Positions 8,759-56,823 of a stretch of 64,000 nucleotides of DNA are shown here, piece after piece (position 1 is the stretch's first letter; every line of letters starts with the position of its first letter). The stretch spans positions 7,053 through 71,052 of IMG/VR virus record IMGVR_UViG_3300037245_001213, one strand, 5' to 3'. The notes beneath the pieces are model-generated. The model was not told the origin of the DNA. It worked only from the letters and a program-made list of their open reading frames with translations, and searched no databases. The position numbers and the translations under genes were made by a program. The DNA comes from a virus.

Positions 8759-8844
8759 GATTCTGCCTTGGTGAGGAACACACAGCCGCATGTGGTGCAG
8801 CAGCGCGCCCAGCCCGCACAGGCCTGGGGTGTGACAACTTATGA

Positions 8845-8927: not shown

Positions 8928-9010
8928 CCTATCGACTAGAGCCGCTGTTATAAGCGGGTGGTGTGCATCTACCGGGTCGCACCCGGGAGCCGCATCAATC
9001 TCTAGTTGAG

Positions 9011-33029: not shown

Positions 33030-33800
33030 CTATTCTATTATACCATGTTTTTTTAACATAGCAAGTGAAAGTCCAAAGAAAACTTCGTTGCTTACTTCTC
33101 CCATGCACCACCTCATGGCCTCCCAGCCTGAAGGGGACTTGCCGAGAGCCTCAAGAACCTTGACGGCCTTCAGAATCTCGCGCTTCCCCCTTACTCTAGT
33201 CCGCAGCTTCAGTTCCCGGGCCACCGACTTGGTGCTGCGTCCGATGGCGTGAGCCGCCTTCAGACGCTCCACAATGTCCCACCGGTGGTCAGGGTGGGAA
33301 ACTATCAGTAGTGAGACGTCCAGGGCTGTAAGGGCCTTAGAGTCAATCTCACGCTGTATTCGTTCCTCCAGTTTCCGGATGGACAGCCGTTCGTTTACCC
33401 ACTTCCTGCTCCTGCCCAACTCCGCTGCCACATGCCCGGCGTCAGGCTCCTTTCCATATATCTTTAGAATGCTCCGCATCTCCTGAGAAGGAGTCATATC
33501 CTTTCTGTCTAGGTTTTCTCTGAAGTTGGCCCGCTGCGCGCCGAGGTCATCAATCTCGATAACCCCACATGTCACCTCGTCCCAACCCAAGAGTGTCACA
33601 GCAATGAACCGCCTATGCCCGGCAACGATATGCCAGGGCTGCGGGCCGACTGTGTTCACTCTGATCACCAAGGGCTGCAACAGTCCTTCCTTCTCGATCG
33701 ATGCGGCCAAGTCTCGGCATGACTCAGGGTCAATGACCCCTCTACAATTGAACTCCTGGTCGTATCGAAGATCCTCCAGTTTTACTTTCAAGGTAGCCAT
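33030..33800 (-). CDS. ParB-like nuclease domain protein
   Basis: LLQPLVIRV...HIVAGHRRFIA ParB N-terminal motif. Confidence 0.6.
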   Translation of the reverse strand: MATLKVKLEDLRYDQEFNCRGVIDPESCRDLAASIEKEGLLQPLVIRVNTVGPQPWHIVAGHRRFIAVTLLGWDEVTCGVIEIDDLGAQRANFRENLDRKDMTPSQEMRSILKIYGKEPDAGHVAAELGRSRKWVNERLSIRKLEERIQREIDSKALTALDVSLLIVSHPDHRWDIVERLKAAHAIGRSTKSVARELKLRTRVRGKREILKAVKVLEALGKSPSGWEAMRWCMGEVSNEVFFGLSLAMLKKHGIIE

Positions 33801-34481: not shown

Positions 34482-34754
34482 TTATTCTTTGTACAAAAGA
34501 ACACGAATCTTACCGATAGGACTTTCGGACAGTCGACCTTCGTGGTCCATCAGTATGGCATAGCTCCAAGCCCCGCTGCTAGTGAACGCGACAAGATCGT
34601 AGAACTTGCCTGTGCCTTTGCCGTCCTCCTCGACAGTCACTCGCAACATGCCCTCGTTCACTGAGTCCCTGACCTTAGGCTCAGGCCCTACCTGTTCACA
34701 GGTCACGCTAATTTGTTTGTCAGTCACCACACGATCCTCCTTTAGTAATGTCAC
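34482..34754 (-). CDS. hypothetical protein
   Basis: ORF. Confidence 0.45.
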   Translation of the reverse strand: MTLLKEDRVVTDKQISVTCEQVGPEPKVRDSVNEGMLRVTVEEDGKGTGKFYDLVAFTSSGAWSYAILMDHEGRLSESPIGKIRVLLYKE

Positions 34755-37332
34755 AGATGTCAGTTGCTTCTTCTACAAGTTCCTTGCCAGAATGCTTCAT
34801 CGCTTCCTTGTACGCTACAGGTGTCAAGGGCTGCCCGTCGCGGGCCCCGTCAGGGTAGACTGTGATTCCCCTCAGTTTCGGTAGATGCTTCATCAGCATG
34901 GTACCAAAAGGCCTGACGGTGCTCTCGTTGTTCTGCTCCGACCCCCAGTGGGGAAGATTCACTGTACTGCTAATGCCATGGTCGACTGCTTGCTGCATCC
35001 AAGATTGGAACTCTACCCGACGCTCAACATCAACAGACAGGTCATAGGCGTCCTCAATCATTGCAAGGTCGATGCCTCCAGCGATAAGCCTGGCCGCTGT
35101 CGGGTCAACGACGTACTGGTAGTGCCAAGTGTTATGCTTCAAATAACGTCGTTTATAAGCGACACAGAAGATTGGCTCAATACCACTGGTCGTTTCTGCA
35201 ACGATGGATGTAGTTCCTGTTGGCGCAATCGCTCGCGTCTTAACGGGTCGGCTGACCCCAAGTTCATCCGCCCACTCGTGAGCAAACTTAGTTGACTTCT
35301 GGTAAACTTCGAGCCATTTCCAAAGTTCATGGTCTGGAGCGTATGGTTTACCTCTCTTGAGTAGCCATTCGTGAACTCCCATGAGGCCCAGGCCGAGTCG
35401 TCGGTTCTTTGTACGTGTCCGGTCGATTGCGGAGTATGGGACGTCGGAATAGAGGCTACCGGCGAGCAGATAGATCGTTCCCATTTCGACAAGACTCTCG
35501 AACTCATCAAGCGAATCGACCCTGGCAAGATTGATGGACCCGAGATTGCAAATGTCATCGGTATCCTTACTTGATACTTCAGTGCAGTTGGCAATTATCA
35601 CCCCCTCTGCGCAAAATGAATGTTCAGGAACTTTCACATCACAACAATAAACATCTGCCGGAGAACCTTCGACAACTTCCAACACTTTCACAGGACTAGG
35701 GCGGTAAGGCACATAGTCTTCACACCTTAATTGAAGCCTCTTTGTAGGTATTAGACGTAGAAAGTTTTGGACACTCTCGGCCCTGATGCTTAGGTTGCTG
35801 CAATCTGCCCCTCCAAACCCAGATTTGATTCCTCCAGAAATGGTCGATAAGATACCAAATCTAAATAGTTCGCCTTGAACATCCCCCAAGAAACCCTCGT
35901 CGCTTTGGCTCAATCTTACTCGTTGACCTTCCTCTTGATAACTGCCATCAGCGTCAAACATGCCAGCCAACCATGATGCAGACTCTTCAAGAGTCATACT
36001 AGGTACCATGGATTTGACAAATCCTTGAAAGATTCCCGCCTTGAAGTACGTCCTTGTATAACCCCCCGGCGTGTCCATGTTAATAGAGGTCATCATTGAA
36101 CAATCCATGAAATCTAAGCAATGCTTCTTCTCAGAGGTGCATAGCGTTAGTTCACCTCCACCATATTTATTGATTGAACCATCGCCAAACACGAAGCCAT
36201 TAGTGTACCATCGAGAAGAAAACTTTTGAGGGCTTACCAATGGCAAGGACCAACGTAAATCATCTCCAGGCTTCAGATTTGAGGCGGCCGTGCGGCGAAT
36301 CTCTTTCAGTCCCCGTTCCTTCCCATGTCCTTCGTACACTTCTAATAGGAATTCATGTGATGGGTCGCAAGTGATACTACCTAATGAGAACATCACTGTG
36401 ACTGTCGGAACATTCTCACCTGTCTGCTTAAACACCGTAGGTGCCCATTGTTCCCCTGTCCACACTGTTATTGGTTTATCTACGACGTCGCCTACACACA
36501 CATGTCCATCAGGAGTAAGAACTTTAGTGCCCCCGACCACAGGTGCATTACGATAAATCTCCAGTGAATCTCTTCCAAGGTTAATCGAGAACCCAGGCTC
36601 CCCTGTCTTCAGCATCTGGCGTATAGTCTCCCAGTACACGGACTGTGCCAGCGTATGCTTAGGATGTTCGTCGTCATGGTAGGCCTTGAAGAACTCGTCA
36701 TTCAACCCGACCGATATATTCGTACAGTCCAAGGTGGCTGGGAAGTTGAAGTCCTTGGCCTTCAATTCACGCACACCTTGAGGCCAGTCCTTGATGTGAA
36801 TGAACTTCATAATGTCAGGGTGGTCCCATCGGAGACCTGCCCAGATGGCTGAACGTCGACTCCCTCCTTGCATGATCCCTCGACCGCATTCGTTCAGCAT
36901 CTGCATCAGCGCAATAGGCCCCGTTGCAAACCCGCCTGTTCGTCGAATCTTGGCGCCTTCGCCACGAATGTCACTGTACTCTACTCCGATTCCAGCCCCG
37001 GTCATCAGAGCCATGCTCGACTTATGCAACAGGTCAGACCACCCCTCGCGTGAGTCATGGACTCCGAGCAAGACGCAGTTCTGCACCTGGTGATAAGATC
37101 TTCCCGACGCGTACAAGTAGCGACCGGCTGGAACAAACTTCCTTTCGGTAATGGTTTTGCAGATATCTTGAGAGAGACCATCACGCATCGTGTAACCAAT
37201 AGCCTTCATTGGGTGCTTGGTCGCGCGGTACGCAATGTTACCCCATCCTTCTGGCCCATCCGCCAACTGATGGGAATACTTCTGGTGCATGATAGTCCGC
37301 GCAAAGTCGGACATAGGTACATCCTTAATCAT
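34720..37332 (-). CDS. ribonucleotide reductase catalytic subunit (probably class II, B12-dependent) interrupted by an intein
   Basis: Extein motifs QNCVLLG, ...YRNA|CTEV (N-x-C-x-E), CNLGSINL. No NrdB-like gene in the window. Confidence 0.8.
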   Translation of the reverse strand: MIKDVPMSDFARTIMHQKYSHQLADGPEGWGNIAYRATKHPMKAIGYTMRDGLSQDICKTITERKFVPAGRYLYASGRSYHQVQNCVLLGVHDSREGWSDLLHKSSMALMTGAGIGVEYSDIRGEGAKIRRTGGFATGPIALMQMLNECGRGIMQGGSRRSAIWAGLRWDHPDIMKFIHIKDWPQGVRELKAKDFNFPATLDCTNISVGLNDEFFKAYHDDEHPKHTLAQSVYWETIRQMLKTGEPGFSINLGRDSLEIYRNAPVVGGTKVLTPDGHVCVGDVVDKPITVWTGEQWAPTVFKQTGENVPTVTVMFSLGSITCDPSHEFLLEVYEGHGKERGLKEIRRTAASNLKPGDDLRWSLPLVSPQKFSSRWYTNGFVFGDGSINKYGGGELTLCTSEKKHCLDFMDCSMMTSINMDTPGGYTRTYFKAGIFQGFVKSMVPSMTLEESASWLAGMFDADGSYQEEGQRVRLSQSDEGFLGDVQGELFRFGILSTISGGIKSGFGGADCSNLSIRAESVQNFLRLIPTKRLQLRCEDYVPYRPSPVKVLEVVEGSPADVYCCDVKVPEHSFCAEGVIIANCTEVSSKDTDDICNLGSINLARVDSLDEFESLVEMGTIYLLAGSLYSDVPYSAIDRTRTKNRRLGLGLMGVHEWLLKRGKPYAPDHELWKWLEVYQKSTKFAHEWADELGVSRPVKTRAIAPTGTTSIVAETTSGIEPIFCVAYKRRYLKHNTWHYQYVVDPTAARLIAGGIDLAMIEDAYDLSVDVERRVEFQSWMQQAVDHGISSTVNLPHWGSEQNNESTVRPFGTMLMKHLPKLRGITVYPDGARDGQPLTPVAYKEAMKHSGKELVEEATDICDITKGGSCGD
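35587..36543 (-). mobile_element. intein with LAGLIDADG homing-endonuclease domain inside RNR (about aa 264-582; boundaries approximate)
   Basis: Block A-like GGTKVLTPDGHV, block B SLGSITCDPSHEF, LAGLIDADG pair NGFVFGDGSI and LAGMFDADGSY, C-terminal ..GVIIAN followed by extein Cys. Confidence 0.7.
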
Positions 37333-38430: not shown

Positions 38431-38955
38431 TCATACTTTCTCCTTGTGTGCTAGGACAACGACCAAGCCGATCAGCACCATGCCGACCAAAACCAGGATG
38501 AACGTGCTTGGCTCTGGTACGCACAGTACACTCCAAGCTGACACATGGCTCACGCCCTTCCATCCCAGCATCTCCGTGCTCCAAGCCCCGCTGCTAGTGA
38601 ACGATGAAGCCAGGAAGTGACGCTTGCTAAACTCAATAGTCTCACATGGGTCGCGCACGCAGAAGGCTGCCCACTCATTACCGGCCTTAATGGTGATTAA
38701 GTTGACCTGGCCCGGGTAGTACCAGCCACCGGTCACCCAACCGTCTGGCGTGAACAAACTGCCCCCTACTGCGAAATCGTTGTCAACGCCAGGGACCTCG
38801 GTGCTACCCAGAAGAGTTGCGTCAATCCCCAGTAGGGTGTCCACGATACCCGGCAGATCGTTCCCGGGGAACGTTCCGAGGTAGGTGTCTGCCCGCACTA
38901 ATTGGGTAGGCATAACTAGTATCAATAGCGCCAGTGTCAATTTCTTAACCATCAT
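38431..38955 (-). CDS. secreted PEP-CTERM protein B
   Basis: Signal peptide MVKKLTLALLILVMPTQLVRA; C-terminal VPEPSTFILVLVGMVLIGLVVVLAHKEKV (PEP + TM + basic). Confidence 0.55.
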   Translation of the reverse strand: MMVKKLTLALLILVMPTQLVRADTYLGTFPGNDLPGIVDTLLGIDATLLGSTEVPGVDNDFAVGGSLFTPDGWVTGGWYYPGQVNLITIKAGNEWAAFCVRDPCETIEFSKRHFLASSFTSSGAWSTEMLGWKGVSHVSAWSVLCVPEPSTFILVLVGMVLIGLVVVLAHKEKV

Positions 38956-39619
38956 GCGTCCTCTCGCCTCCCCAAGCCATGCCGAGGAAAGCAAGGGCCA
39001 CCACCAGCAGTACGATGGTTGTTGGCTCAGGGGCTTGCATGAAGATCTGGTCCTGTCGATGGCCATCGCCCTGGAACAAGTTCAAGACACGGACCCGACC
39101 AATCCCAGTAGGGTTTGCGTTCACCGCTTGCAGGTGGAAAGCGGCCCCAAGTGTGAGATCAGATACCTCGTCCTCGATATACCAGATAGCGTTCTGCAAA
39201 GCCCTCGCTGACGCGCCTCGCCCAGAACCGTAGTCATAACCGATCAGTGTCCCTTCGACGAAGCTTTGGTACAACCAGGCTGTCAGAGGACTAAGCGGGT
39301 CGAAGCCCCCTGTAGCCCCTCCTACGCCGCCTAGCACGGCACCAGTATTTACCTCGAAACGATAGGTTCCGCCGATAGACACATTCTCGTTATGCTCCAG
39401 GCAGAAAGATTGAAAAGACACGCCGTCAAGGGCAGGGACACCACCCACAAAGTCCAGGTCATCGGTGCTCAACTTGAACTCACCTCCATCTCCAGCGAAG
39501 GTCCCTTGCACGCGTGTCAAGGATAATTCCCCAGCATGGCAGAAAGCAGTGAACAAGGCCGCGATGGCAACAACAGTCAGCAGTGCCTTGAAAATCTTCA
39601 TCTTCATCTTAATATCCAA
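38945..39619 (-). CDS. secreted PEP-CTERM protein A (Gly-rich)
   Basis: Signal peptide MKIFKALLTVVAIAALFTAFCHA; C-terminal APEPTTIVLLVVALAFLGMAWGGER. Confidence 0.55.
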   Translation of the reverse strand: MDIKMKMKIFKALLTVVAIAALFTAFCHAGELSLTRVQGTFAGDGGEFKLSTDDLDFVGGVPALDGVSFQSFCLEHNENVSIGGTYRFEVNTGAVLGGVGGATGGFDPLSPLTAWLYQSFVEGTLIGYDYGSGRGASARALQNAIWYIEDEVSDLTLGAAFHLQAVNANPTGIGRVRVLNLFQGDGHRQDQIFMQAPEPTTIVLLVVALAFLGMAWGGERTHDG

Positions 39620-41727: not shown

Positions 41728-42987
41728 TCAGCATGACACGTCATCCATCATGTCGATCTTGTACCGCTTCGGACCCTTCTTCTCGTAGGGGCAACGCAGC
41801 TTGACAGGTAGCCGCCAGGTGATGCCATACTTCTTGTTGACGCCGTGAAGGAGTTGGGAGGGCTCTGTGTAGCCCGTCAACGCGTTGAAGGCGAAGGCAT
41901 CCGTAGCAGGCCATGCTCCATTGATAAGCATCTCACCGTTAAGCTCGGTCGTGCTACCAGGGCGATGGAAGTGACCGCAGCAATGGTACCGAACCGGGAC
42001 GCCCTTCTGGACAGTGTTCAGGGCAAGGATCTTGTACCGACGCTTCTCCAGGCCATACCAGGGCACGCCCAGGCTGGAACGGATATCATCACCATGAAAG
42101 ATGTGGAACCCGACACCGTCAATGTCCACGTTCACTGAGTAACTGTTCGGGATCACGAAGGTTACATTCTCCATGTCCGCACAGTACATCTCCGCTGTCT
42201 TGGCGATCAAATAGTCCCAGTTGTCATGCGCTCCATGGTAGTCCTTCTTCATGCTGCGACGCCCGTGGTTGCCCGGGACGTAGATGATGTTGACCTGATC
42301 GAAATACGGGGCCAGGTCGCGGAACATCAGACTGTGCAACTGACCGATCGCCAGGCTGTTCTTGAAGGCGTTCCGGAAATAGGACCGGCTGGTGTGGCCA
42401 TGGATCTCACCTGACGTATGGTCGCCATAGGCCAGGACAGTGAGCGACTGGAACCGGTACTGAGGCGCCAGCGTCCGCTGAGTCCACTTCAGGATCGTGT
42501 CCACGTATCGCTCAGCCCTACACATGCTGATCGGGAAGTCATAGGTCTCCAGCCCACCTGTGTCCGAAGGCGTCACAATCTGGTCATGGTGGCCATCTGA
42601 CAGGTGCATGACCAAATGCTCATTGATCTGGTCACCGCCTGTGTAAACAGGCCTGGCGTCCGGCAATGCCAACATAGGCTGTACCCGTCGATCCATCTCG
42701 TCCACGATGGCAGAGAACAGACCTTGAGTCTTGGCCGCCGACTTCAACTTACGCCTTGAGTCGTTGCGCTCTTCACGGAGATGCTCAATCTCGCCACGCA
42801 TCTTCAAGAACTCAGTGTCCTCAATCATTTCAGGCGTAGGGACGTCCTTGTGAACTCGCCCCGTAGCAATGTCAGAGATGACTGACCGGCTGATCTCAAA
42901 TTTCTCGCCAATCTCTGCCTGGGTCAAGCGCTTCTCCGACAGCATTGTCTTAATGTCGACCACTTGATCCTTATTTAGCTTCGTCAT
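41728..42987 (-). CDS. HTH-domain-containing metallophosphoesterase
   Basis: N-terminal LTQAEIGEKFEISRSVISDI HTH; MPP motifs LSDGHHD, YGDH, PGNHGRR, FHGDD, CGHFH. Confidence 0.55.
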   Translation of the reverse strand: MTKLNKDQVVDIKTMLSEKRLTQAEIGEKFEISRSVISDIATGRVHKDVPTPEMIEDTEFLKMRGEIEHLREERNDSRRKLKSAAKTQGLFSAIVDEMDRRVQPMLALPDARPVYTGGDQINEHLVMHLSDGHHDQIVTPSDTGGLETYDFPISMCRAERYVDTILKWTQRTLAPQYRFQSLTVLAYGDHTSGEIHGHTSRSYFRNAFKNSLAIGQLHSLMFRDLAPYFDQVNIIYVPGNHGRRSMKKDYHGAHDNWDYLIAKTAEMYCADMENVTFVIPNSYSVNVDIDGVGFHIFHGDDIRSSLGVPWYGLEKRRYKILALNTVQKGVPVRYHCCGHFHRPGSTTELNGEMLINGAWPATDAFAFNALTGYTEPSQLLHGVNKKYGITWRLPVKLRCPYEKKGPKRYKIDMMDDVSC

Positions 42988-44896
42988 TCAACTCTCCAAT
43001 TAGAACAGGGTTACCGCGCTCAGTTGTATCAGCAATCATGTACTCGACAGCCTTCAGGAAGTTCCCATCAGGCGGCGAGAACATTATCTTCTTTAGATCA
43101 AGTCCTTCTAGTTCAATACGGTGCTCAGACCGATATGTTTCATTATCAATCATCTCGATGCAGATATCGACAAACTTCTCCGCGTCCTTGGTTGTCAACT
43201 CCGGCATACCTATCTGACGAAGCAAATGTGATGCCGCTTTATTGTAGAACCGGTCTCCTTCCAGAGTCACAACAGGTAGTCCAAGGTAGAAAGCCTCGAC
43301 GATAGTGTTGTAACCCCCGAAGGGGAAAGAGTTTACAGCGAAATCACCCTTCTCTGACCTTTCCATATATTCTGCATAATGCAAGCTATGATGAATGACA
43401 GAGTTAGGAAGTAGTTGCGAAATCACCTCACTGAAGGGCACAAAGCCCCCATACCTGTTTATAGCAGGTGAAGGGTAGAAATGCCACTCATGCTCAGTAG
43501 TAGCCCGCCGACTGATCTCGCGAAGAACTTCAAGCATCATCACGTTGTACTTATCGGGGCCCCACACGCAGTTGATCTCGACCGGGGACTTCTCCACCCA
43601 ATTGTTCTTTTTCTCATAGGAGGGCCACGCAGGGTGCTGAGCCAAGCCTGGCAGAAGAATCATCTGCTCCGAGTATTGGTCTCCACAGTCCTTTTCGACA
43701 TCCCCACCTACAAAGTAGTCAATGCAATTGTTGTGGCCCGTCGTGGCCGGGTGACCATACCCAACGGCCTGTACTGGAGCAAGACGGCAATTCGAGAGCC
43801 AGATGGATTCCTCAAGCATCCCAATGTCAGGGAAGTAGGCCAACTGGAAATCGTTGTCCTTCACCTCAGGAGGAAAGGCCAGGTTCCCATCTTTGAACTT
43901 CACATTGCAGACATTATCAAATCCATCTATCATCAGGTCCTCAGGTACGTGTTCGCCCAGGTGAATTAAGGTGAGTTTGTACTTGCCTTTCAGTTCTTCG
44001 ACCAAAGGAGATGCCGACTTGTATACAGCATGATTACGGTGCCACTTACCAGAGATTATCGCGATGCTCTTGGGATCAGGTTTGTTGTTAATCTTCACGT
44101 TGAGCACTTTGGAGCACGCCTTGTTGATCCGGCTCTTCACTTCCAGGTCGAGTTTAGGCGCGAAGTAAGTGGTGGTAAAGTACAACGCGGAGATCTGAGG
44201 ACAAGGTGGCGCCCATCGGTCATCCATGTTCTCCAAATGGTGGAGGTAGGAATAGTGTAGGAATCGAGTAGGGTTACTGGTACCCAATACGAAAGAGTTG
44301 AACCAGATGGAAGCCATCTCGGGATTCACGTCAAACAACTTCGATTGCTCGATCTCGACCTCGCAACGCGCGTTCAATAGGAACAACAGGCGTTGGTAGT
44401 TATTCTGCTGACGAAGGACGTGCTTCACAACAGGAGTGGTTACATGGTAGTTTGAGGTGGCCACCAGGTTGGAAAAGACATGACCCATAGAGATCAGCAT
44501 CTTGGCATCCATATCGGCGAACTTGATGTCCCCAGTCATCACGATGAAAACCATCATCACAAAGTCATCAATGTTCCTCCGGTCCTGTGAACTGTATGTT
44601 GTATACGAATTACGTTCAAAGAAGATAAGAATCGAGATGATCGCCTGCGCTACCTTGTGAGGGTCGCCGTTGATGATGGCTTTCAGGTACTTAATACGCT
44701 TAACTACCGGAAGACCTTCTTTTGGTGCGCCCGGCATAATGTTCAGATGGTTCTTAGACATTTCTTTACTCCTATTAGGGCGTTCGGCCGACCATAAAGT
44801 TGTGGACAGCGATAAGCCATGTGAAAATACTTCCTTCTGGGCAACAGATTTACTGCTATCAAACATTGCTTTCCTCGTAACGTTGCAGTAATCCAT
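42971..44896 (-). CDS. GT41-family (O-GlcNAc-transferase-like) glycosyltransferase, no TPRs
   Basis: C-terminal FPFGGYNTIVEAFYLGLPVVTLEGDRFYNKAASHLLRQIGMPEL resembles OGT NGHTT..LWMGVPVVT..ASRVAAS..G..EL. Confidence 0.5.
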   Translation of the reverse strand: MDYCNVTRKAMFDSSKSVAQKEVFSHGLSLSTTLWSAERPNRSKEMSKNHLNIMPGAPKEGLPVVKRIKYLKAIINGDPHKVAQAIISILIFFERNSYTTYSSQDRRNIDDFVMMVFIVMTGDIKFADMDAKMLISMGHVFSNLVATSNYHVTTPVVKHVLRQQNNYQRLLFLLNARCEVEIEQSKLFDVNPEMASIWFNSFVLGTSNPTRFLHYSYLHHLENMDDRWAPPCPQISALYFTTTYFAPKLDLEVKSRINKACSKVLNVKINNKPDPKSIAIISGKWHRNHAVYKSASPLVEELKGKYKLTLIHLGEHVPEDLMIDGFDNVCNVKFKDGNLAFPPEVKDNDFQLAYFPDIGMLEESIWLSNCRLAPVQAVGYGHPATTGHNNCIDYFVGGDVEKDCGDQYSEQMILLPGLAQHPAWPSYEKKNNWVEKSPVEINCVWGPDKYNVMMLEVLREISRRATTEHEWHFYPSPAINRYGGFVPFSEVISQLLPNSVIHHSLHYAEYMERSEKGDFAVNSFPFGGYNTIVEAFYLGLPVVTLEGDRFYNKAASHLLRQIGMPELTTKDAEKFVDICIEMIDNETYRSEHRIELEGLDLKKIMFSPPDGNFLKAVEYMIADTTERGNPVLIGELNDEAK

Positions 44897-45983
44897 CTAC
44901 CAAAATTAAGATGGTGATTGATAGTCCCATCGATTTGATCTCAGCGGCTATGTCAGCGGCTCGCCAGGTCGTAGTCACGATGATTTCACTTGGTTTCAGA
45001 TCTCTCAGTGTCTCCGGAGAGTGAATCTCGAAGTCCGTCCCAGGAACGTAACTTCCCCACTTACGGCTGTCCGAGTCTATGACCATTGCGGCTTTTAGAT
45101 TGAGCATGTTGATAGTGTTCGCGCACTTTCCCGCGCCTCCCCAGAACACAGGTGTCTCCAGGCAGTTCAGGTGAGCCCCAGTGGCTAGAAGGTTGTCGTA
45201 GGCCAGGGCGATGCGTGTGGTGACAGGACACTTGGTGTCGGCCAGGCTGGCGGTGGCCAATAGAACCTCGTCGTTGTAGAGTTGCTCTACCTCGTAGGTG
45301 TTCCACCCCGACAAGTCCAGTAGGGTCGTTAGGCTATCCGGCGTGAAGTGTTGAGGGTGCTCATACACCCAGTCTTCCAGTCGGCCTGCCTCAAAGGCAG
45401 GTAGGATATTAGGCACCTCGATAATCAGGTAAGGAGTCAGGTGGCAGCGGTGAGCGTTGTACGACAGGTCTTCTAGAAAGCTCCTAGGGCTGGCGAAGTG
45501 CTCAAGCACATGACGCATTATGATAGCATCAGGCTTATCCATTTCCATAGAAATACCATCGAAGTACGTATTATGTGACTCGGTGACTTCCGAGCAAAAC
45601 ACATAATCATCTGAAGGCTCGTAGGCGACATAATTATGGCCGTTGAACAGGGCTGCAAACTCACCACGTCCTGCCCCAATCTCAACAATAATACCATTGC
45701 AGTCCTGGCACAGGTCTTTGACAACCCAGGCCACGTCTTGCATGTGCGTGGCCCACTCTTCGCCTTTGTTGTACATCGTACATCCGCCAGCATGACACTG
45801 GTCGAAGTCAGGGTCGTAGGATGCGTTGAAAGTGTGGGTGCATTGCAAGCACTGCCTGATACTTACCGGGAATCGACGTGCATAAGCATTAGGCTGAGTA
45901 GGTAAATCAAGTACACTGAGAGGCAGTAGATCGAGATCCGCCACTCGGTATGTGAGAGCAGAATTACAAACTGGGCACTTCAT
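44859..45983 (-). CDS. Zn-ribbon SAM-dependent methyltransferase (TylCIII/NDP-hexose C-methyltransferase-like architecture)
   Basis: N-terminal CPVC...CLQC, motif I VEIGAGRGEF, extended C-terminal domain. Confidence 0.55.
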   Translation of the reverse strand: MKCPVCNSALTYRVADLDLLPLSVLDLPTQPNAYARRFPVSIRQCLQCTHTFNASYDPDFDQCHAGGCTMYNKGEEWATHMQDVAWVVKDLCQDCNGIIVEIGAGRGEFAALFNGHNYVAYEPSDDYVFCSEVTESHNTYFDGISMEMDKPDAIIMRHVLEHFASPRSFLEDLSYNAHRCHLTPYLIIEVPNILPAFEAGRLEDWVYEHPQHFTPDSLTTLLDLSGWNTYEVEQLYNDEVLLATASLADTKCPVTTRIALAYDNLLATGAHLNCLETPVFWGGAGKCANTINMLNLKAAMVIDSDSRKWGSYVPGTDFEIHSPETLRDLKPSEIIVTTTWRAADIAAEIKSMGLSITILILVDGLLQRYEESNV

Positions 45984-46143
45984 TCCATTCCTCCTGGTCT
46001 TGTGCGTACTGATCAGCTACCAAATAGACGCCTTGAGAGTCATCCTCTACTCGGCAAATCCGCTGGTACTCTCCAGAGTCTAAGAATATCTCAGAGTCAG
46101 GAGGCATCGAACTCAATTCATTTACGAGGTCTTCTACTGTCAT
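45964..46143 (-). CDS. hypothetical small protein
   Basis: Internal start MTVEDLVNEL overlapping the ligase stop. Confidence 0.35.
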   Translation of the reverse strand: MTVEDLVNELSSMPPDSEIFLDSGEYQRICRVEDDSQGVYLVADQYAQDQEEWNEVPSL

Positions 46144-47177
46144 CCTAGATCCTTTGCTCCTTTTCGCTGATAGTAGTCCACCGAGACCGACTTGAGAATC
46201 AAGCGACCTCCGAGGATATCTGAATGCCGTTCGCAAAGTGGCTTGATAACCACCCCTTCGCGACCTTTGAACTTGCAGCGGATGTTATCATCAAGGGTCA
46301 TGGTAGTTGCGCCATTAGTAGCCGTCTCTACAATCTTCTGATCAAACGGTCCACAATACATTGAATTGACAATTGGTACATTATGCTTATCAGTCCAGAT
46401 GCGGAAGTTCACATCCGACATGTACTGGCCGTCTATTGAAATATCGAAGGCCCTGAACCCGGGCACAGGTTGACCATAGTCCATGTCCTGGATGCCCTGC
46501 CCGAAGATCTCACCGAACACGATTACATTACTGCGCTTGAGGCCTGACAGTTCGCGGAGAATCGGCTCAACAATCTCCATCGGCTTCCAGTACATTGTCC
46601 GAGGGTCGCCTTCTACTCGTCTGGTCTTGTGAGAGCCCGCAACGAGTTCCCCGTCGATAATCCCAAGGCGCACGTTCGTGCCATGTATCTTTTCCGTGAT
46701 ACGCACCATTTCATCCGTGAAGACGCCTGGGTGGTTACGGATATTCTCGATTGAAGTGTACTGGTGAAAGGCATCAAGAGGCGGCAGGCAGTCGCCGCCA
46801 AGTACCCTCACAGGGGGGTGGTACTTCCTACCATCATACTGATCCGTTACATCCAAGCCATATTTACCATTTATAGGTCCTTGCAGGAACCCAAAGCTCG
46901 GGACTCCCCGCAGGCGACAGGCGCTGACCCGGCACTGGGTCTTCATCCCGTCCCCAGGGTAGACAGCGTGCTTCAGGTACTGCTTCACCCCCAGGCGCAC
47001 GGCCACATCTTCAGGGAGAAGCATATCGGGTGGGAAGTAGATGCCAGCATCACCTACCTTATATGCCCCCTTCTGGACGACTACAGTGTAGCCGAGCACC
47101 TGGACCACTTCCAGGCGATCAGCGTTAGGATGGTCCTCGACGCTGTTGATACGTTCGATGGTTATGGCAGTCTTCAC
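46140..47177 (-). CDS. ATP-dependent RNA ligase (Rnl2-like) fused to N-terminal tRNA-binding OB domain
   Basis: N-term IERINSVEDHPNADRLEVVQV...YKVGD (CsaA/Trbp111-like tRNA_bind). Ligase motifs EKIHGTN, VIVFGEIFG, RAFDISIDG, REGVVIKP. Confidence 0.65.
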   Translation of the reverse strand: MKTAITIERINSVEDHPNADRLEVVQVLGYTVVVQKGAYKVGDAGIYFPPDMLLPEDVAVRLGVKQYLKHAVYPGDGMKTQCRVSACRLRGVPSFGFLQGPINGKYGLDVTDQYDGRKYHPPVRVLGGDCLPPLDAFHQYTSIENIRNHPGVFTDEMVRITEKIHGTNVRLGIIDGELVAGSHKTRRVEGDPRTMYWKPMEIVEPILRELSGLKRSNVIVFGEIFGQGIQDMDYGQPVPGFRAFDISIDGQYMSDVNFRIWTDKHNVPIVNSMYCGPFDQKIVETATNGATTMTLDDNIRCKFKGREGVVIKPLCERHSDILGGRLILKSVSVDYYQRKGAKDLG

Positions 47178-48925
47178 GGCATTTCTCCAAGTGTCATTAG
47201 TTCAAGTCGTCGATTAGCATCTAAGATGCTGCGAATGTAAGCATCCGTAGGCAGATGGTCAATGTCCACGATAGTTGCGCCTAGGTTGTAGTCCATCCCA
47301 GGACGATGGATACGCCCCTTGGCCTGATACCGAGACTCAGGATTGAAGTCATTACTGTAGAACACAGCCATACGCGATTCAGTCAGCGTCAGCCCCATAC
47401 CACCAGACTGTGGGTGGGCTACAAACGCCACGCGTGCCGCGTCACTAGCCCAGTGGTCGAGGACTTCCACGCCATTCTTAATTCCATCCTGTCCGTACAC
47501 CTTCCAACCCCGTCCATCTACCTGCGCGACGTCCCAGCCTTGTCCAATACACAACTCACGGACACGGTCAATCGAGCCAGTGAAGCCGGCAAAGATAACG
47601 ATGCGACCTTGCTCTTCGACTTCCTCCAGCAGTTCCTTCACCACCTGGTCCTTGGGGCAAGGGATCTGGTTGGCTTCGCTCTTCATCACGTCAACGACGC
47701 CTTCTCCCTCGCAGCCATCGCAGTCTTCGTCCGTTCCGTCACACACAGGACAGGGCTTCGTCCCTACCTTGACCTGCCGGTATTGAAACCCATCAGAGAG
47801 TTCCCGTAGCCAGGTGAGAGCCTGGATAGCCGTAGGAGCAATGTCCTTCAGCGTCTTCGCCACGCGCGTTATCGTGCGCGTAGGCTTACACTCAATCACG
47901 CGGTGCTGTAACTCAGGGAGATCCAGAACGTCTTTCTTTAGGAAGGGCAACACCAGACCGTGCATACGTTCGTAAAGGTAAGACACTTCGTTAATGCTCT
48001 TTACAAAATCATGGTCCTCGGCACCGGTATGGTGCTGCCCACACACGTTACATTTGTCTTCGTCATCCAACCAAGTAACACGATCCCAATAGAATCCGTC
48101 GACCTTCATCTCTTTCTTGTATAACCCAAGCCGGAACTCAAAGGCTTTAGGTGAACCTTCACGAATGAATCCAGGGCAGGCTATTTCGCATTGACTGAAC
48201 CAGCCAAGTGGAGACTTCGGGCTTGGGGCGCCAGACATGAGCACAATGTAAGAATCATATTCCCATTCTAATCGCATGGCATCGGCCAGCCCCATTGCTG
48301 CTTGTGTTCGCTGGGATGTAGGGCCCTTTAAGCGGCTACTTTCGTCGAAGATAACGCCGTGCGGAGCCGGGTCGCCTGACTTCCAGTTCTTCATTACCTT
48401 TACAAGTCCCTGGTAGGTAAGCATCCGGGGTGTGACTTTGCAGTCCCACTTGACGAACTCACGCTCCACGGCTTTGAGAGCTGACTTAGGGCCCACCCAC
48501 CAGAAGTCATCCTGACTTGAGCGTTCCATAATCTCGATTCCGGCCACAGTTTTACCCACGCCGAGGTCAGCCGCTAAGATAAGGTGATTGTAAGTGAGGA
48601 CATGCCTGACCATGGTCTTCTGGTGTTCAAAGAGAGGGCGATCGAATTCAATATCCAGTAAGGGCTTATCAAAATGCGCATAAGGGTTTCCGCCTGTAAG
48701 GTATTCCAGTTGGAACTTGTTCCGCGCGCAGTCAGTGACCGACCACATCTTAATAGGTGGGTCTTCGCGCCCATGCCACTTCGCGCCTTTCATAGCCTTG
48801 ATCTCGTCTTTAAGCTCGTAAGGAGCTTTGAGAAACCAGATGCGACCATTACGGCGTTCAAGGATCACCGGGTACAGGTAAGTGCGCCCGTTGCTCTCCT
48901 TCATCATTTTGGTGTGTTCAACCAT
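47174..48925 (-). CDS. SNF2/DEAD-like helicase with Zn-finger inserts
   Basis: Walker A DLGVGKT, DESS box, motif VI QAKGRIHRPG; CNVCGQHH and CPVCDGTDEDCDGCEG. Confidence 0.7.
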   Translation of the reverse strand: MVEHTKMMKESNGRTYLYPVILERRNGRIWFLKAPYELKDEIKAMKGAKWHGREDPPIKMWSVTDCARNKFQLEYLTGGNPYAHFDKPLLDIEFDRPLFEHQKTMVRHVLTYNHLILAADLGVGKTVAGIEIMERSSQDDFWWVGPKSALKAVEREFVKWDCKVTPRMLTYQGLVKVMKNWKSGDPAPHGVIFDESSRLKGPTSQRTQAAMGLADAMRLEWEYDSYIVLMSGAPSPKSPLGWFSQCEIACPGFIREGSPKAFEFRLGLYKKEMKVDGFYWDRVTWLDDEDKCNVCGQHHTGAEDHDFVKSINEVSYLYERMHGLVLPFLKKDVLDLPELQHRVIECKPTRTITRVAKTLKDIAPTAIQALTWLRELSDGFQYRQVKVGTKPCPVCDGTDEDCDGCEGEGVVDVMKSEANQIPCPKDQVVKELLEEVEEQGRIVIFAGFTGSIDRVRELCIGQGWDVAQVDGRGWKVYGQDGIKNGVEVLDHWASDAARVAFVAHPQSGGMGLTLTESRMAVFYSNDFNPESRYQAKGRIHRPGMDYNLGATIVDIDHLPTDAYIRSILDANRRLELMTLGEMP

Positions 48926-49394
48926 GGTATTCCAAAAGAAAGGTTCCGTCGTCTGTAGCCTTACGTTCAAGTGTACCATTCAGGCCACGTTTGTCAAGGT
49001 CAGTGTATATCATATTGAAGATCTTCCTGGCCTCTGGGCTGGCCGAAGCCCTACAACCCCGCTTAACAGCATGGTGCCACTCTGAGAGTGGTCCGGTTAT
49101 AATCATTGCCAGGATGCCCCGAGCCACAGTGTCAGTCACAATATGGGGCATCCCCGCCAACTGCACGATCTCAGGTACGTCGCGTTCATCAACCGCGATT
49201 AGGTAGGCTAATGTGTAGAATGCCTCTACATCATCCATGCCACCTTCTACCAATCCCGCGATGCACAACATATTGTGGACCTCTTTGGTCAATGCTGTGT
49301 CATCCGAGATGCCCCTGCCCAGCGCCTTGCGGGCAATAGGCAGGAAGGTGTCAAGGTCAAATGCAGAGAACATGATTAACTGAACAGCGTTCAC
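48918..49394 (-). CDS. hypothetical protein
   Basis: ORF. Confidence 0.45.
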   Translation of the reverse strand: MNAVQLIMFSAFDLDTFLPIARKALGRGISDDTALTKEVHNMLCIAGLVEGGMDDVEAFYTLAYLIAVDERDVPEIVQLAGMPHIVTDTVARGILAMIITGPLSEWHHAVKRGCRASASPEARKIFNMIYTDLDKRGLNGTLERKATDDGTFLLEYHG

Positions 49395-50863: not shown

Positions 50864-51532
50864 CTAGCGTGCCCGTTTGGTCGCAGGTTCTTCTGCGACT
50901 TCCGGACCTTCATCAGGGTTATTGAACTTGTCAATCTGCTTGACAACCTCGTCCATGTCGGGGCCACCAGTGAGGGGCTCCGAACAAGCAACAACTACCG
51001 GCACATGCCAGGAGAAGTCTTTACCCTTCTTGTACTTAATCTTCAGAGTCAACGCCGAGGCGGGGCTCTTCGGACGAGGCAAGAAAGGTTCGACCTTACC
51101 GGCTTCGGCGCGACCAGAGGCGTTGCCGAAGTACAGTTCGTACAACTTCTCAGTCTTGCGTTCAAGAACCAAGAACGAACGGCCCCACATACATCCAGTG
51201 TTCTTAGGGGCATCCTTAATCCGCTTGAACTCGTCCGACTCTTTGTCGTATACCGAGATGATGTTGTCACGATCAGACACATCCAGTGCCTTATCGCGGA
51301 CAGCAAGCGGAATGATGTCGACCTCAGGTCCAAGGTCAGCGCACTCGTCGCCAGTAGGAACTCCCCAACGACCTGGGGGAACCTTACCAGTATCAACATA
51401 CTTACCCTTTGAGATAAGTTGGAGGCGAGGCAGGAAGTTAGCGTTCGTTGAGACTTTCTCAAGAGCGTTAATCTGCTCGTCGCTGACTACTGGAAGTTGG
51501 GCGGCGGTGAAAGGTACGATTGCATTACCCAT
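50864..51532 (-). CDS. hypothetical protein
   Basis: 222-aa ORF with RBS. Confidence 0.5.
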   Translation of the reverse strand: MGNAIVPFTAAQLPVVSDEQINALEKVSTNANFLPRLQLISKGKYVDTGKVPPGRWGVPTGDECADLGPEVDIIPLAVRDKALDVSDRDNIISVYDKESDEFKRIKDAPKNTGCMWGRSFLVLERKTEKLYELYFGNASGRAEAGKVEPFLPRPKSPASALTLKIKYKKGKDFSWHVPVVVACSEPLTGGPDMDEVVKQIDKFNNPDEGPEVAEEPATKRAR

Positions 51533-52433
51533 TGGTAATCTCCGTGGTTAAGTTTTCTAAAAGCGTTCGATTGTCTTTCCTACGCTGCACGTAAGAAATT
51601 TTACGTTTGCCCGCACGGGCACTTTTCACATTCTGCTCTTCCAGTGATTCTGGGTCAAGGTGATAGAGCCACGCCATGCAGCAACGCCACCCATCTGAGG
51701 GCGTCACTGCTTCCAAGCGTTTCAGAACCTTCACTTCATTGTGATGCGTCCTGACTTCCTCTTTAAGCTCTTTCCATCCTCTAAAATATCCTGTCGTGTT
51801 ATAGGAACTATGTTCACTCCATTTAGTCCTATCTTGCTGACTACACATGCGCCAATCCCTCAGCGCTTTCCTTGTCATGTCTTGGAACTCAATGACCTTA
51901 CAGGTGACGGCAAAGGTTAAGAAATTAGGCTGCAACTCTCTCGGCAGCTTTGACAATGCTACCGCGTTACATAATGTTATCTCATTCCTGTCTACCATCT
52001 CCCGGGCCGTCTTTGACAGACGGCTAAGGCCCATGACTCTCCTGACCCATTGAACGTTCTTGTTAATGTGTACGGACAGTTCTACGAGAGACATACTTTT
52101 GCTATCCAGTATGGCGTTAATCCTCGTTGAGTATTCGACCATCGAAGTCTCGGGACGCAGAGCCTGCGTCTTTAACTGAATGACCATTACTTCCTCGTCT
52201 GTGAACTCTCGCAACAGACAAGGAATCTCAACCAGGCCCGCATCCTTCGCGGCATGGTATCGCCAGTTTCCCTCTACGACTACATAACGTCCCTCCTTCT
52301 GACGAATCAGAATTGGTTGGAGTATGCCATCTCTCTTGATGGAGTCTACAAGCTCGTAGTAGTCGACGCTGTGTCTACGCACCGGTCGAAGTTGAATCTT
52401 TGGTGCATCGATGTCGGCGAGTTTTACAAGCAT
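51525..52433 (-). CDS. ParB-like nuclease domain protein (second copy)
   Basis: DGILQPILIRQKEGRYVVVEGNWRYHAAKDAG. Confidence 0.55.
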   Translation of the reverse strand: MLVKLADIDAPKIQLRPVRRHSVDYYELVDSIKRDGILQPILIRQKEGRYVVVEGNWRYHAAKDAGLVEIPCLLREFTDEEVMVIQLKTQALRPETSMVEYSTRINAILDSKSMSLVELSVHINKNVQWVRRVMGLSRLSKTAREMVDRNEITLCNAVALSKLPRELQPNFLTFAVTCKVIEFQDMTRKALRDWRMCSQQDRTKWSEHSSYNTTGYFRGWKELKEEVRTHHNEVKVLKRLEAVTPSDGWRCCMAWLYHLDPESLEEQNVKSARAGKRKISYVQRRKDNRTLLENLTTEITNG

Positions 52434-55933: not shown

Positions 55934-56823
55934 TTAAAGACAGCGGCGAACGAACAGACTTTGATTCAGGGGCGCAGCGTGATTGCGCCGAGGGGAAGGG
56001 CAGGTTAGATCTTATGCCTTTCAGAGCCATGATGGAACTGGCTAAGATATATGAGGAAGGCGCAAAGAAATACGACGCCAACAACTGGCGTCGTGGGATA
56101 CCCTTATCAAGATATTTGGACTCAGGGCTTAGGCATCTATCTAAGTGGGCAGCAGGGATGCGGGATGAACCTCACCTTGAGCAGGCTGCCTGGAACATCA
56201 TGGGTTTGATCGAGACTCAGGTGCTGATAAGTGAAGGCTGCTTGCCAGAATCTTTGAACGACCTACCTTACAACAAGTTGGAGATCTCTGACAATCCTCA
56301 CAACATTCCGGAGTTGAAGATAGCTGATCCGGCTGTCAAGGATTTCCCTGAACGTAAAGTGAACTCTGACGGAATACCTACAATGGATTGTAAACTAACC
56401 GAAAGAAATAACTTTATTGCGCGGTGCGAGGCTCATAGCCTGGTTGCAGTCGACAAGAAGACATTGCAGATGGAATGCAAAGACTGGCAATGTATGGTGG
56501 CTAAGCAGACTCTGAAAGAGCAAGGTACCGAGGCCGAGCGCACTAAAGATGTAGTTAAGTTAAGCATACCTGAGAAAGAGGTAAATCTCCTGAGTCAAGA
56601 GACTGTTGAAGAGATTTACATGGCCCCGCCTACGAAACAGGTGAAAGAGTCTGACGACCTGTGCTTCGCCAAGGAAGAGGCATTCGTGGGCATCAAAGAC
56701 TGGGGCACGCCCATGACGCCTGAAGAGATCGCTGACACCTGGCGTAAGGCGCATGAGAAGGAGTACCCGGACGTCGACCCAGATGGGGACCTGTACATGA
56801 AACCGATTGGAGGTTTACTATGA
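55930..56823 (+). CDS. hypothetical protein (possible MazG-like/nucleotide pyrophosphohydrolase-related N-domain)
   Basis: N-term DFDSGAQRDCAEGKGRLDLMPFRAMMELAKIYEEGAKKYDANNWRRG; recalled family resemblance only. Confidence 0.45.
   Translation: MIKDSGERTDFDSGAQRDCAEGKGRLDLMPFRAMMELAKIYEEGAKKYDANNWRRGIPLSRYLDSGLRHLSKWAAGMRDEPHLEQAAWNIMGLIETQVLISEGCLPESLNDLPYNKLEISDNPHNIPELKIADPAVKDFPERKVNSDGIPTMDCKLTERNNFIARCEAHSLVAVDKKTLQMECKDWQCMVAKQTLKEQGTEAERTKDVVKLSIPEKEVNLLSQETVEEIYMAPPTKQVKESDDLCFAKEEAFVGIKDWGTPMTPEEIADTWRKAHEKEYPDVDPDGDLYMKPIGGLL

Follow-up and report, generated by a model that had tools for sequence, protein, structure and literature searches.

A sugar C-methyltransferase and a GT41 glycosyltransferase form a putative accessory glycosylation cassette in a variable slot of an uncultivated phage lineage

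The analysed window, a 64,000-nucleotide stretch of a viral genome, encodes on its minus strand a sugar C-methyltransferase (MT) and a GT41 glycosyltransferase (GT), which on balance we read as a two-gene accessory glycosylation cassette in which a methyl-branched sugar would be made by MT and transferred by GT to a phage or host protein. The likely role of such a cassette is to modify a protein of either phage or host in the course of infection. The cassette occurs in a single sub-clade of an uncultivated phage lineage (roughly 70-175 kb) and is without counterpart in GenBank phages or BFVD: no GT homologue was found by tblastn in 50,697 GenBank phage records, and a search of BFVD with the GT model returned generic GT-B similarity only (best E 5e-7, TM 0.34).

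Both open reading frames are confirmed as genuine, with family similarities well above chance level, the longest-ORF coordinates being 42971-44896 (641 aa) for GT and 44859-45983 (374 aa) for MT, and the motifs quoted in a preliminary description of this DNA are all read in them (FPFGGYNTIVEAFYLGLPVVTLEGDRFYNKAASHLL in GT; VEIGAGRGEF and CPVC...CLQC in MT). Two details of that description are revised here. The coding strand runs MT first and then GT, the reverse of the order given, and the GT product is shortened from 641 to 596 aa, its true start almost certainly being the ATG at 44761, because an AGGAG lies 7 nt upstream (about 44769-44773, inside the MT-GT intergenic spacer), the database protein P0001, 100% identical to GT, is 596 aa long and the homologues are all of ~600 aa. 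The stretch 44762-44896 (minus strand) would then hold a spurious 45-codon N-terminal extension and the MT-GT spacer, and the 38-nt overlap of the two genes would be an artefact of the longest-ORF choice. For MT the 374-aa form is correct, since the homologue alignments extend over its N-terminal zinc ribbon; its start, the ATG at 45983, is preceded by an AGGAGG Shine-Dalgarno sequence.

MT (44859-45983, minus strand) has the full three-domain architecture of the TylCIII/TcaB9/MtmC-type NDP-hexose C-methyltransferases, comprising an N-terminal Cys4 zinc ribbon (C3, C6, C45, C48), a class I SAM domain with the motif VEIGAGRGEF and a C-terminal NDP-binding domain with the motif WGGAGK...DSDxRKxGxYVPGT. 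Pfam recognizes Methyltransf_23 (48.5 bits); Methyltransf_14 and Methyltransf_13 are sub-threshold in the protein itself, yet annotated in many homologues. The family profile matches MtmC (4rv9, E 1.6e-32), TcaB9 (4e-21) and KijD1 (1.5e-20) in the PDB over the full length, and with the AF2 model (pLDDT 93.3) all of the top 18 Foldseek matches in the PDB are sugar C3-methyltransferases, so that the zinc ribbon, SAM motif and sugar-methyltransferase C-terminal domain proposed earlier are borne out. An identity as an rRNA/tRNA-type methyltransferase was rejected: generic methyltransferases, a few of them acting on RNA, match the core domain alone (E at least 1e-7), whereas the sugar C3-methyltransferases match sequence and structure at full length. 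H162, E208 and H209 of MT align with TcaB9 H181, E224 and H225, the positions altered in the mutant structures 4e2w, 4e2y and 4e2z of the PDB, and together with the Cys4 site and the G103/G105 SAM motif they are invariant or nearly so among 48 homologues; from these conserved zinc, SAM and His/Glu-His residues MT is predicted to be catalytically competent. A homologue in phage S-SKS1 lies among genes for GDP-mannose 4,6-dehydratase, fucose synthase and a fucosyltransferase, a sugar context for this family in a phage.

GT (42971-44761, minus strand, 596 aa) is a TPR-less GT41 enzyme, more precisely one of HMW1C/NGT architecture, in which an all-alpha domain at the N-terminus (about aa 1-225) precedes the GT-B catalytic domain (about aa 226-596). 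The earlier assignment to TPR-less GT41 stands, as the AF2 model (pLDDT 90.6, pTM 0.89) shows a GT41-type GT-B fold devoid of TPRs, but the label OGT-like does not, because the profile reaches E 1e-40 with ApNGT (3q3e) against 1e-14 with SPINDLY. Pfam GT41 is matched at 31.7 bits (cutoff 25) and NCBIfam NGTferase at E 1.2e-33 and 116.6 bits (equivalog cutoff 1000), and Foldseek aligns the whole length of the model with ApNGT and AaNGT (TM 0.73-0.76). Among homologues the all-alpha domain shows pairwise identities of 0.30-0.43 with invariant polar and aromatic residues; it is mildly basic, with a charge of +6 (pI 9.2) in the window protein and a family median of +3, and the catalytic lobes are acidic. 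Neither in the sequence nor in the predicted model is there any visible sign of a membrane segment or signal peptide. In relatives of GT, fusions to GT4, class I methyltransferase, sulfotransferase or Core-2 branching domains occur, a glycan-building context for the family, and a second GT41 paralogue is present in seven phage loci.

Judged from aligned residues, the nucleotide-sugar site of GT is intact, with phosphate, ribose and sugar contacts as in NGTs: across 45 GT homologues there is no variation at the positions equivalent to AaNGT H276, G369-H370, K440, N520, D524 (a Glu here) and Y500. The uracil contacts His494 and Ser495 of AaNGT are not conserved in the family. AaNGT requires R177 and D215 to read the Thr at position +2 (PMC10507012). 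A profile-to-sequence alignment, which here runs through the less conserved all-alpha domain, finds this dyad absent in all 45 family members, the aligned positions being Leu159 and Gly/Ser/Cys/Ala192 and never Asp or Arg. With the dyad that reads Ser/Thr+2 missing, GT is predicted not to be a canonical NGT and probably does not read the canonical Asn-X-Ser/Thr sequon.

That MT and GT constitute one functional unit is strongly supported by their perfect co-occurrence. Across 80 related phage loci anchored on the neighbouring exonuclease, both genes are found in 35, where MT immediately precedes GT, only one in none and neither in 35, and in a separate GT-anchored set MT stands directly upstream of GT at every locus (22/22); a deltaproteobacterial MAG holds a further, distant GT-MT pair. 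The earlier suggestion that a methylated sugar is made and transferred is supported.

The cassette occupies a variable slot between an SNF2-family helicase (47174-48979, minus strand; Pfam Helicase_C and SNF2-rel_dom), which forms the upstream boundary and keeps its position whether or not a locus has the cassette, and an HTH and calcineurin-like (Mre11/SbcD-type) exonuclease (41728-42987, minus strand; phrog_284 exonuclease, E 1.7e-39), which forms the downstream boundary. A 17-nt overlap joins the end of GT to the start of the exonuclease gene, and in all related loci the exonuclease adjoins the cassette or lies within 3.7 kb downstream. An Rnl-type RNA ligase (46140-47177, minus strand; Pfam RNA_ligase and PHA02142 OB domain) is other slot cargo and not part of the cassette, its presence and position varying among relatives. 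In relatives with the common backbone the slot is empty or otherwise filled, with protease, DNA methylase (N6/N4 type, L078) or RNA-repair genes (L042 and L091). Of ten slot ORFs that were scanned, seven encode a trypsin-like protease, the commonest cargo. Because the cargo varies in this way, the position of the cassette says little about its target. The cassette is accessory and optional for replication, half of the close relatives replicating with the same module and no cassette.

NDP-sugar synthesis genes (dehydratase, reductase, nucleotidyltransferase), for which the preliminary description had proposed a search, were not found within the window, and the donor would therefore probably derive from a host 4-keto-6-deoxyhexose. 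As its family and catalytic residues suggest, MT would take a host-made NDP-4-keto-6-deoxyhexose, e.g., the product of RmlB or GMD, and transfer the SAM methyl group to the carbon beside the keto group, as TylCIII, TcaB9, KijD1 and MtmC do. A glycosyltransferase normally requires a reduced sugar rather than a 4-keto sugar, and no reductase for the latter is evident within the window; the keto group may be reduced by a host reductase or by MT itself, as in the bifunctional MtmC. The GT41 enzyme, given its family and its intact donor site, would then presumably bind the methylated NDP-sugar and pass the branched sugar to a macromolecule positioned as acceptor between the all-alpha domain and the catalytic lobes. 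The nature of this acceptor is the least certain step; it would be a phage or host protein, since to our knowledge all characterised GT41 enzymes modify proteins, and a protein is the most likely target of GT.

It is unlikely, though conceivable, that the methyl-branched sugar is instead placed on a phage DNA base or on RNA as a protection against host restriction, CRISPR or anticodon nucleases, in the manner of T4 glucosyl-hmC. Such a target would fit the operon-like run of the cassette with the SNF2 helicase, RNA ligase and overlapping exonuclease, the DNA methylase and RNA-repair genes that fill the same slot elsewhere, the richness of the window in nucleotide-metabolism and RNA-repair genes, the mildly basic all-alpha domain and the missing peptide-reading dyad. 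However, we know of no GT41 enzyme acting on nucleic acids (CAZy GT41 activities), and the GT model resembles phage DNA glucosyltransferases only in the generic GT-B fold (S-TIM5 DNA alpha-GT, E 2e-4, TM 0.28). The hydroxymethylated DNA suggested earlier as a target gains no support: dCMP deaminase, ThyX and a DNA methylase are all present as described, but ThyX and dCMP deaminase point to ordinary dTMP synthesis, and neither a base hydroxymethylase (ThyA-type dUMP/dCMP) nor any other source of hydroxylated bases was found within the window. Since the slot is a general accessory site holding mostly protease, position does not imply a DNA function, and relatives lacking the cassette replicate all the same.

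Remodelling of a non-protein host glycan or small molecule, such as a cell-envelope polysaccharide precursor, a lipid-linked intermediate or a metabolite, with superinfection block or an altered cell surface as possible outcomes, is likewise improbable. TylCIII-type methyltransferases normally feed polysaccharide or natural-product pathways, as the fucose/polysaccharide-like cluster of S-SKS1 illustrates; the GT4, sulfotransferase and branching-enzyme fusions of GT relatives are typical of glycan assembly, and PEP-CTERM proteins, a class associated with hosts that produce exopolysaccharide, are also encoded by the phage. Against this, GT has no visible membrane segment or signal peptide, its nearest structural relatives all use polypeptide acceptors, and the family has kept its all-alpha acceptor domain in conserved form. 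That GT is a canonical HMW1C-type N-glucosyltransferase placing UDP-glucose-derived glucose on Asn-X-Ser/Thr while MT acts elsewhere is very unlikely, for although its best sequence, profile and structure matches are ApNGT and AaNGT and the donor contacts through Lys, Asn, His and Gly-His are kept, the essential dyad and the uracil contacts are lost, the NCBIfam score is well short of the equivalog cutoff, no partner of the adhesin or two-partner-secretion type was found, and the perfect MT-GT linkage argues for one joint pathway.

Compared with known systems, MT shares with TylCIII, TcaB9, KijD1 and MtmC the zinc ribbon, class I SAM and NDP-binding domains, the His/Glu-His catalytic residues and the GxGAxxKG...D(S/T)xxxKxGxxxPG motif, but is only 15-18% identical and ~40 residues shorter, and stands outside any deoxysugar or antibiotic cluster, with no 4,6-dehydratase, aminotransferase or ketoreductase nearby. 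Foldseek aligns all three domains (TM 0.55), albeit with a global rmsd of ~26 A, which suggests that the predicted domain arrangement differs from the crystal structures. Like the HMW1C-like NGTs (ApNGT, AaNGT, H. influenzae HMW1C), GT is a soluble, cytoplasmic protein of ~600 aa in which an all-alpha domain replaces the TPRs before a GT-B fold, and it keeps the His, Gly-His, Lys and Asn of the donor site as well as the acidic ribose ligand; on the other hand, it is only about 20% identical to them, lacks the sequon-reading Arg177/Asp215(/His214) residues, differs in its uracil contacts and is phage-encoded beside a sugar C-methyltransferase, whereas NGTs lie beside a two-partner-secretion adhesin. 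The alpha-GT and beta-GT of T4 with their relatives and the mycobacteriophage virion glycosyltransferases are also virus-encoded GT-B enzymes decorating viral macromolecules with host nucleotide sugars, yet they belong to families other than GT41, and here there is no hydroxymethylase partner and the cassette lies outside the structural module. In enterobacterial flagellin glycosylation, GT41 enzymes are likewise tied to SAM methyltransferases, to whose domains they are usually fused, often in a setting with rhamnose-pathway sugars (PMC4875605). By description, those fusions join a generic AdoMet domain to the glycosyltransferase beside bacterial flagellin genes, whereas here a separate TylCIII-type C-methyltransferase accompanies GT in the early/replication region of a phage.

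Two adjoining genes on the minus strand of the window encode a sugar C-methyltransferase (MT) and a GT41 glycosyltransferase (GT), both apparently competent in catalysis, and the pair, referred to here as the cassette, is inherited as one unit. Both open reading frames of the preliminary description, 42971-44896 (longest ORF, 641 aa) and 44859-45983 (374 aa), are real, minus-strand genes, and all the motifs quoted for them are found there; the order of the genes and the length of GT have had to be revised. On the coding strand MT (44859-45983, minus) comes first and GT second, separated by 97 nt between the MT stop and the corrected GT start. This start is moved from ATG 44896, which has no ribosome-binding site, to ATG 44761, which follows an AGGAG after a spacer of 7 nt, and since the database protein identical to GT (P0001) is also 596 aa long and all homologues have about 600 aa, GT is placed at 42971-44761 (minus, 596 aa). 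For MT, AGGAGG can be read before the start at 45983 and the homologues cover the protein from residue 1 onwards, zinc ribbon included; the 374-aa form is therefore correct, and the JGI call of 305 aa (P0121) falls short of it.

By every computational criterion, MT is a TylCIII-type NDP-4-keto-hexose C-methyltransferase. Compared alone with Pfam, it has a solid match to Methyltransf_23 (PF13489, 48.5 bits) and sub-threshold matches to PF08484 (21.4 bits, cutoff 23.5) and PF08421 (13.9), two families that are annotated on many of its 82 homologues. A profile built from 48 of these homologues finds in the PDB MtmC (4rv9, the D-mycarose 3-C-methyltransferase; E 1.6e-32), TcaB9 (4e-21) and KijD1 (1.5e-20), and profile positions 2-345/359, nearly the whole length, align with them, including the CxxC...CxxC ribbon and the C-terminal nucleotide-binding motifs GxGAxxKG...D(S/T)xxxKxGxxxPG. 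The three-domain layout of the family consists of the PF08421 zinc ribbon, a class I SAM domain and the PF08484 C-terminal domain. In a Foldseek search of the PDB with the AF2 model (pLDDT 93.3), the best 18 matches are exclusively MtmC, TcaB9 and KijD1 (E 1e-23 to 1e-17, about 418 columns), and the next are generic single-domain methyltransferases at E >= 1e-7; the earlier assignment to the sugar C-methyltransferases rather than to those acting on rRNA or tRNA is borne out by these 18 structures and by the profile matches, which are all sugar C3-methyltransferases. The global rmsd to these enzymes is large (about 26 Å, TM 0.55), so the inter-domain arrangement of the model differs from the crystal forms. 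Across the homologues C45 and C48 of the Cys4 zinc site are invariant and C3 and C6 at least 90% conserved, all four aligning with the CxxC...CxxC of TcaB9 and MtmC, while G103 and G105 of the SAM motif are invariant or nearly so. Likewise, H162 and H209 do not vary, and E208 is conserved to at least 90%; these three align with H181, E224 and H225 of TcaB9, its catalytic residues, as the titles of the mutant PDB entries 4e2w, 4e2y and 4e2z indicate.

For GT, the Pfam GT41 family (PF13844) matches only the C-lobe (31.7 bits, cutoff 25, residues 509-593 of the 641-aa ORF), and residues 272-594 are recognised by the NCBIfam model for UDP-glucose:protein N-beta-glucosyltransferase (E 1.2e-33). In phmmer searches of the PDB the first matches are the HMW1C-like N-glycosyltransferases (NGTs) AaNGT and ApNGT, at about 1e-26, with SPINDLY, OGT and XcOGT at E 1e-9 to 1e-6, and a profile of 45 family members reaches ApNGT at 1e-40 in an alignment that extends into the all-alpha domain (AAD; from profile position 88-130). 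The AF2 model (pLDDT 90.6, pTM 0.89) predicts a GT-B fold with two Rossmann lobes and the conserved phosphate-binding Lys; the corresponding K404, in the motif GPDKYN, is invariant in 45/45 family sequences and aligns with AaNGT K440, and this Lys of GT41 enzymes is K842 in hOGT and K441 in ApNGT. All top PDB matches of the model are GT41 structures: ApNGT and AaNGT align over the full length (Foldseek TM 0.73-0.76, about 620 aligned columns), and TPR-bearing GT41s reach only about TM 0.5. Model and PDB matches thus agree with the TPR-less GT41 and the GT-B fold first proposed, and more precisely GT is predicted to have the HMW1C/NGT architecture, an AAD in place of the TPRs followed by GT-B.

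The residues of GT were compared with those of AaNGT through its structural paper (PMC10507012), a profile alignment and column counts over the 45 family sequences. Throughout the phage family the donor site is intact and does not vary, with H276, G369-H370, K440, N520, D524, Y500 and R280 of AaNGT matched by H244, G336-H337, K404, N485, E489, Y465 and K248, respectively. The position of AaNGT S277 is an invariant Ala, and the residues at its uracil contacts vary, with Glu/Asp/Gln in place of H494 and Gln/Trp/Lys in place of S495; perhaps the nucleotide carrier differs from that of NGTs. In AaNGT, R177 and D215 are each essential and read the Ser/Thr at +2 of Asn-X-Ser/Thr (PMC10507012). This dyad appears to be missing from all 45 family members, where Leu159 and Gly/Ser/Cys/Ala192 align instead, with never an Asp at 192, and no Lys or Arg is found among the residues listed at positions 156-165 of the same sequence alignment, which is anchored here by the conservation of the neighbouring xxYxxCxY motif. 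GT is accordingly regarded as an enzyme with NGT architecture and donor-site contacts that would lack the NGT acceptor code.

The strongest evidence that the product of MT is the donor of GT is the all-or-none pattern of the two genes. For GT, 326 homologues were found on metagenomic contigs, the longest of 117 kb, and those examined share 40-78% identity with it from end to end. MT lies immediately upstream in 22/22 loci anchored on GT, and in most of them the exonuclease gene follows GT directly, a few having an RNA ligase or AP2-domain gene in between. As a control for bias, the exonuclease (profile A4) was used as the anchor and 80 IMG/VR loci were scanned with local HMMs: 35 carry both genes, on the same strand and with MT directly upstream of the GT41 gene, none of the 80 carries MT or GT alone, and a further 35 loci, each with 6 kb or more of sequence upstream, have neither gene. 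Seven loci (L044, L045, L047, L049, L050, L054 and L055; about 3-7 kb in each) have a second GT41 paralogue beside the first, after MT, which hints at two sequential sugar additions or two acceptors. A scan of the GTDB species genomes gave only two loci, both distant. A deltaproteobacterial MAG encodes a distant GT (27% identical) with a TylCIII-type methyltransferase 0.8 kb away, and a search with the GT of locus L024 found only TPR-type GT41s, with C-lobe coverage and no informative context.

The preliminary description had suggested synthesis as well as transfer of a methylated sugar. Scans with Pfam or PHROGs of all window ORFs of at least 180 aa, plus 59 smaller ones, found no nucleotidyltransferase, 4,6-dehydratase, epimerase or reductase for NDP-sugars, and NDP-sugar biosynthesis genes, including NDP-hexose 4,6-dehydratase or deoxysugar neighbours of MT, were equally absent within 10 kb in the related loci L001 and L003. 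Since the window holds no donor-pathway genes, the phage probably draws on the NDP-4-keto-6-deoxyhexose of its host. A homologue of MT in phage S-SKS1 (24% identical) sits among genes for GDP-mannose 4,6-dehydratase, GDP-fucose synthase, a fucosyltransferase and an epimerase, a neighbourhood that supports a sugar-nucleotide role of the MT family in phages. In the mechanism we propose, MT would C-methylate the host sugar nucleotide with SAM, and the keto group would then be reduced by a host enzyme or by MT itself, in the manner of MtmC, its best PDB match, which is bifunctional in C-methylation and keto reduction. GT would finally transfer the branched sugar to its acceptor.

No cultured relative is usable, because comparisons with GenBank phages gave only nil or 24%-identity matches: a distant-mode blastn search with the DNA of the cassette and a tblastn search with GT (50,697 phage records) found nothing, MT matched only S-SKS1, and PolA of the window is at most 24% identical to any. 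The window belongs to an uncultivated phage, and its other genes include those for a tail protein, ParB, a primase, a class II ribonucleotide reductase with a LAGLIDADG insert, DNA ligase, RtcB and two tRNAs. The backbone common to all relatives runs from primase, ParB, two conserved unknowns and an SNF2 helicase through the slot that holds the cassette to an Mre11-like exonuclease and, further on, ParB and PolA. This slot between helicase and exonuclease (42987-47174 in the window; also loci L042 and L062-L104) is a hot spot for accessory cargo. In cassette-free relatives it is empty or contains a trypsin-like protease (7/10 slot ORFs scanned), an N6/N4 DNA methylase (L078), Ro60/TROVE with a phosphoesterase and an RNA ligase (L042) or an RNA ligase alone (L091), and endonuclease VII is further cargo across the lineage; the cassette is therefore optional cargo in a generic accessory slot. 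Inferring the target from the position of the slot was rejected, as trypsin-like proteases make up most of its cargo, with a DNA methylase in one case and RNA-repair genes in others, and the place of the cassette among replication genes does not in itself indicate a DNA target.

Several other features of the window were recorded. Two ParB-like genes (33030-33800 and 51525-52433, both minus) keep their position across the lineage. The ribonucleotide reductase (34720-37332, minus, 870 aa) has its barrel domain in three stretches and a LAGLIDADG_3 homing-endonuclease domain at aa 450-528, pointing to an intein or a comparable insertion. A full RNA-repair set comprises RtcB, an RlaP nucleotidyltransferase and an Rnl-type RNA ligase (475-1833, plus; 9991-10923, plus; 46140-47177, minus), to which the slot of relatives adds Ro60/TROVE and a phosphoesterase. 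The tRNAs are tRNA-Thr (8840-8929, plus) and tRNA-Asn (27766-27839, minus), the tRNA-Thr call being unusually long (90 nt, anticodon at position 37). A protein with a MazZ-like dATP/dGTP diphosphohydrolase N-terminal domain (55930-56823, plus) adjoins the primase and is kept in several relatives, with no PurZ-like gene seen beside it in the window, and a radical SAM protein of 326 aa (23589-24569, minus) has weak QueE-like similarity in PHROGs, with no other 7-deazaguanine pathway genes recognised beside it. Two tandem secreted PEP-CTERM proteins (38431-39066 and 38945-39619, both minus), with homologues only in the closest relatives (L005, L007), suggest a host with an exosortase system; as a conserved acceptor of GT they were rejected, given their restriction to close relatives and at most one N-X-S/T sequon by eye.

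The acceptor is reasonably likely to be a protein, which would be read by a code other than N-X-S/T; we favour this because every characterised GT41 enzyme known to us modifies polypeptides and because the AAD is retained and conserved. A non-protein glycan or a small molecule is an unlikely acceptor. In the wider family of GT, an exhaustive HMMER search (E <= 1e-30) gave 621 cluster representatives at 50% identity, of which more than 150 are full-length (about 600 aa), and the set includes fusions to domains of GT4-type glycosyltransferases, class I methyltransferases, sulfotransferases and Core-2/I-branching enzymes as well as two or three tandem copies of GT itself. The fusion partners all act on sugars, consistent with an enzyme that initiates or elongates a decorated glycan attached to a macromolecule. 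The fused and tandem relatives (P0237, P0238, P0239, P0251, P0271, P0272, P0316 and P0334) lie outside the phage clade. The GT41 enzymes encoded in the flagellin glycosylation islands of enterobacteria likewise tend to carry a fused methyltransferase domain (PMC4875605).

That a nucleic acid is the acceptor, as the preliminary description had also considered, is improbable. The charge of the AAD might have spoken for it, and this argument is weak: the +11 of a first ProtParam estimate was dropped, counts of K+R-D-E giving +6 for the window protein and a median of +3 across the family. Against it, BFVD gives GT only generic GT-B matches (the S-TIM5 DNA alpha-glucosyltransferase at E 2e-4, TM 0.28), and neither the window ORFs scanned nor the 10 kb covered in L001 and L003 include a ThyA-type (Thymidylat_synt) hydroxymethylase; ThyX and dCMP deaminase, noted from the outset, are both encoded in the window. 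A new hypermodification, in which a dyad-less NGT-type GT41 puts a C-methyl-branched deoxyhexose on phage DNA or RNA with no hydroxymethylpyrimidine intermediate, seems to us distinctly doubtful; the mark might then sit, for example, on an exocyclic amine, parallel to the amide-N chemistry of NGTs, and would act against restriction or nucleases. Finally, GT is not filed as a canonical NGT, since the dyad is absent, its score to NCBIfam NF049992 (116.6 bits) is far under the curated equivalog cutoff of 1000, and no two-partner-secretion or autotransporter adhesin lies beside it in any of the loci examined, its neighbours being SNF2 helicase, RNA ligase, exonuclease, ParB, primase and PolA.

In cells, glycosylation of proteins in the cytoplasm is mainly the work of GT41 enzymes (OGT, SPINDLY, NGT), and we know of none described in a virus of bacteria. 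BFVD contained no NGT-like match (the best was a generic GT-B, TM 0.34), and our literature searches found no prior description of a phage HMW1C/GT41 or of a phage C-methyltransferase/glycosyltransferase DNA modification. Both enzyme families are already known; what is new is the NGT-architecture GT41 in phages, the loss of the sequon dyad, the obligate pairing with a branched-sugar C-methyltransferase and the behaviour as a mobile cassette. The strict link of a dyad-less GT to a branched-sugar MT points to a previously unseen modification with an unusual sugar during infection, which might be directed at a protein of phage or host or, with lower probability, at a nucleic acid. Solid as the family assignments are, and striking as the association is, their significance depends on the biological target. 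Phages that are otherwise syntenic but differ in carrying the cassette form a natural experiment from which its function could be learned. NGTs are tools for N-glycoprotein production in bacteria, and a branch with a different acceptor and probably a different donor specificity could widen this toolbox.

Among known systems, the T4 alpha- and beta-glucosyltransferases differ from GT in that homology to known DNA glucosyltransferases and a partner hydroxymethylase are both missing for the latter. The HMW1C-like NGTs differ from it in the dyad, the equivalog-level score and the adhesin neighbour, and share with it the AAD joined to GT-B and the donor contacts.
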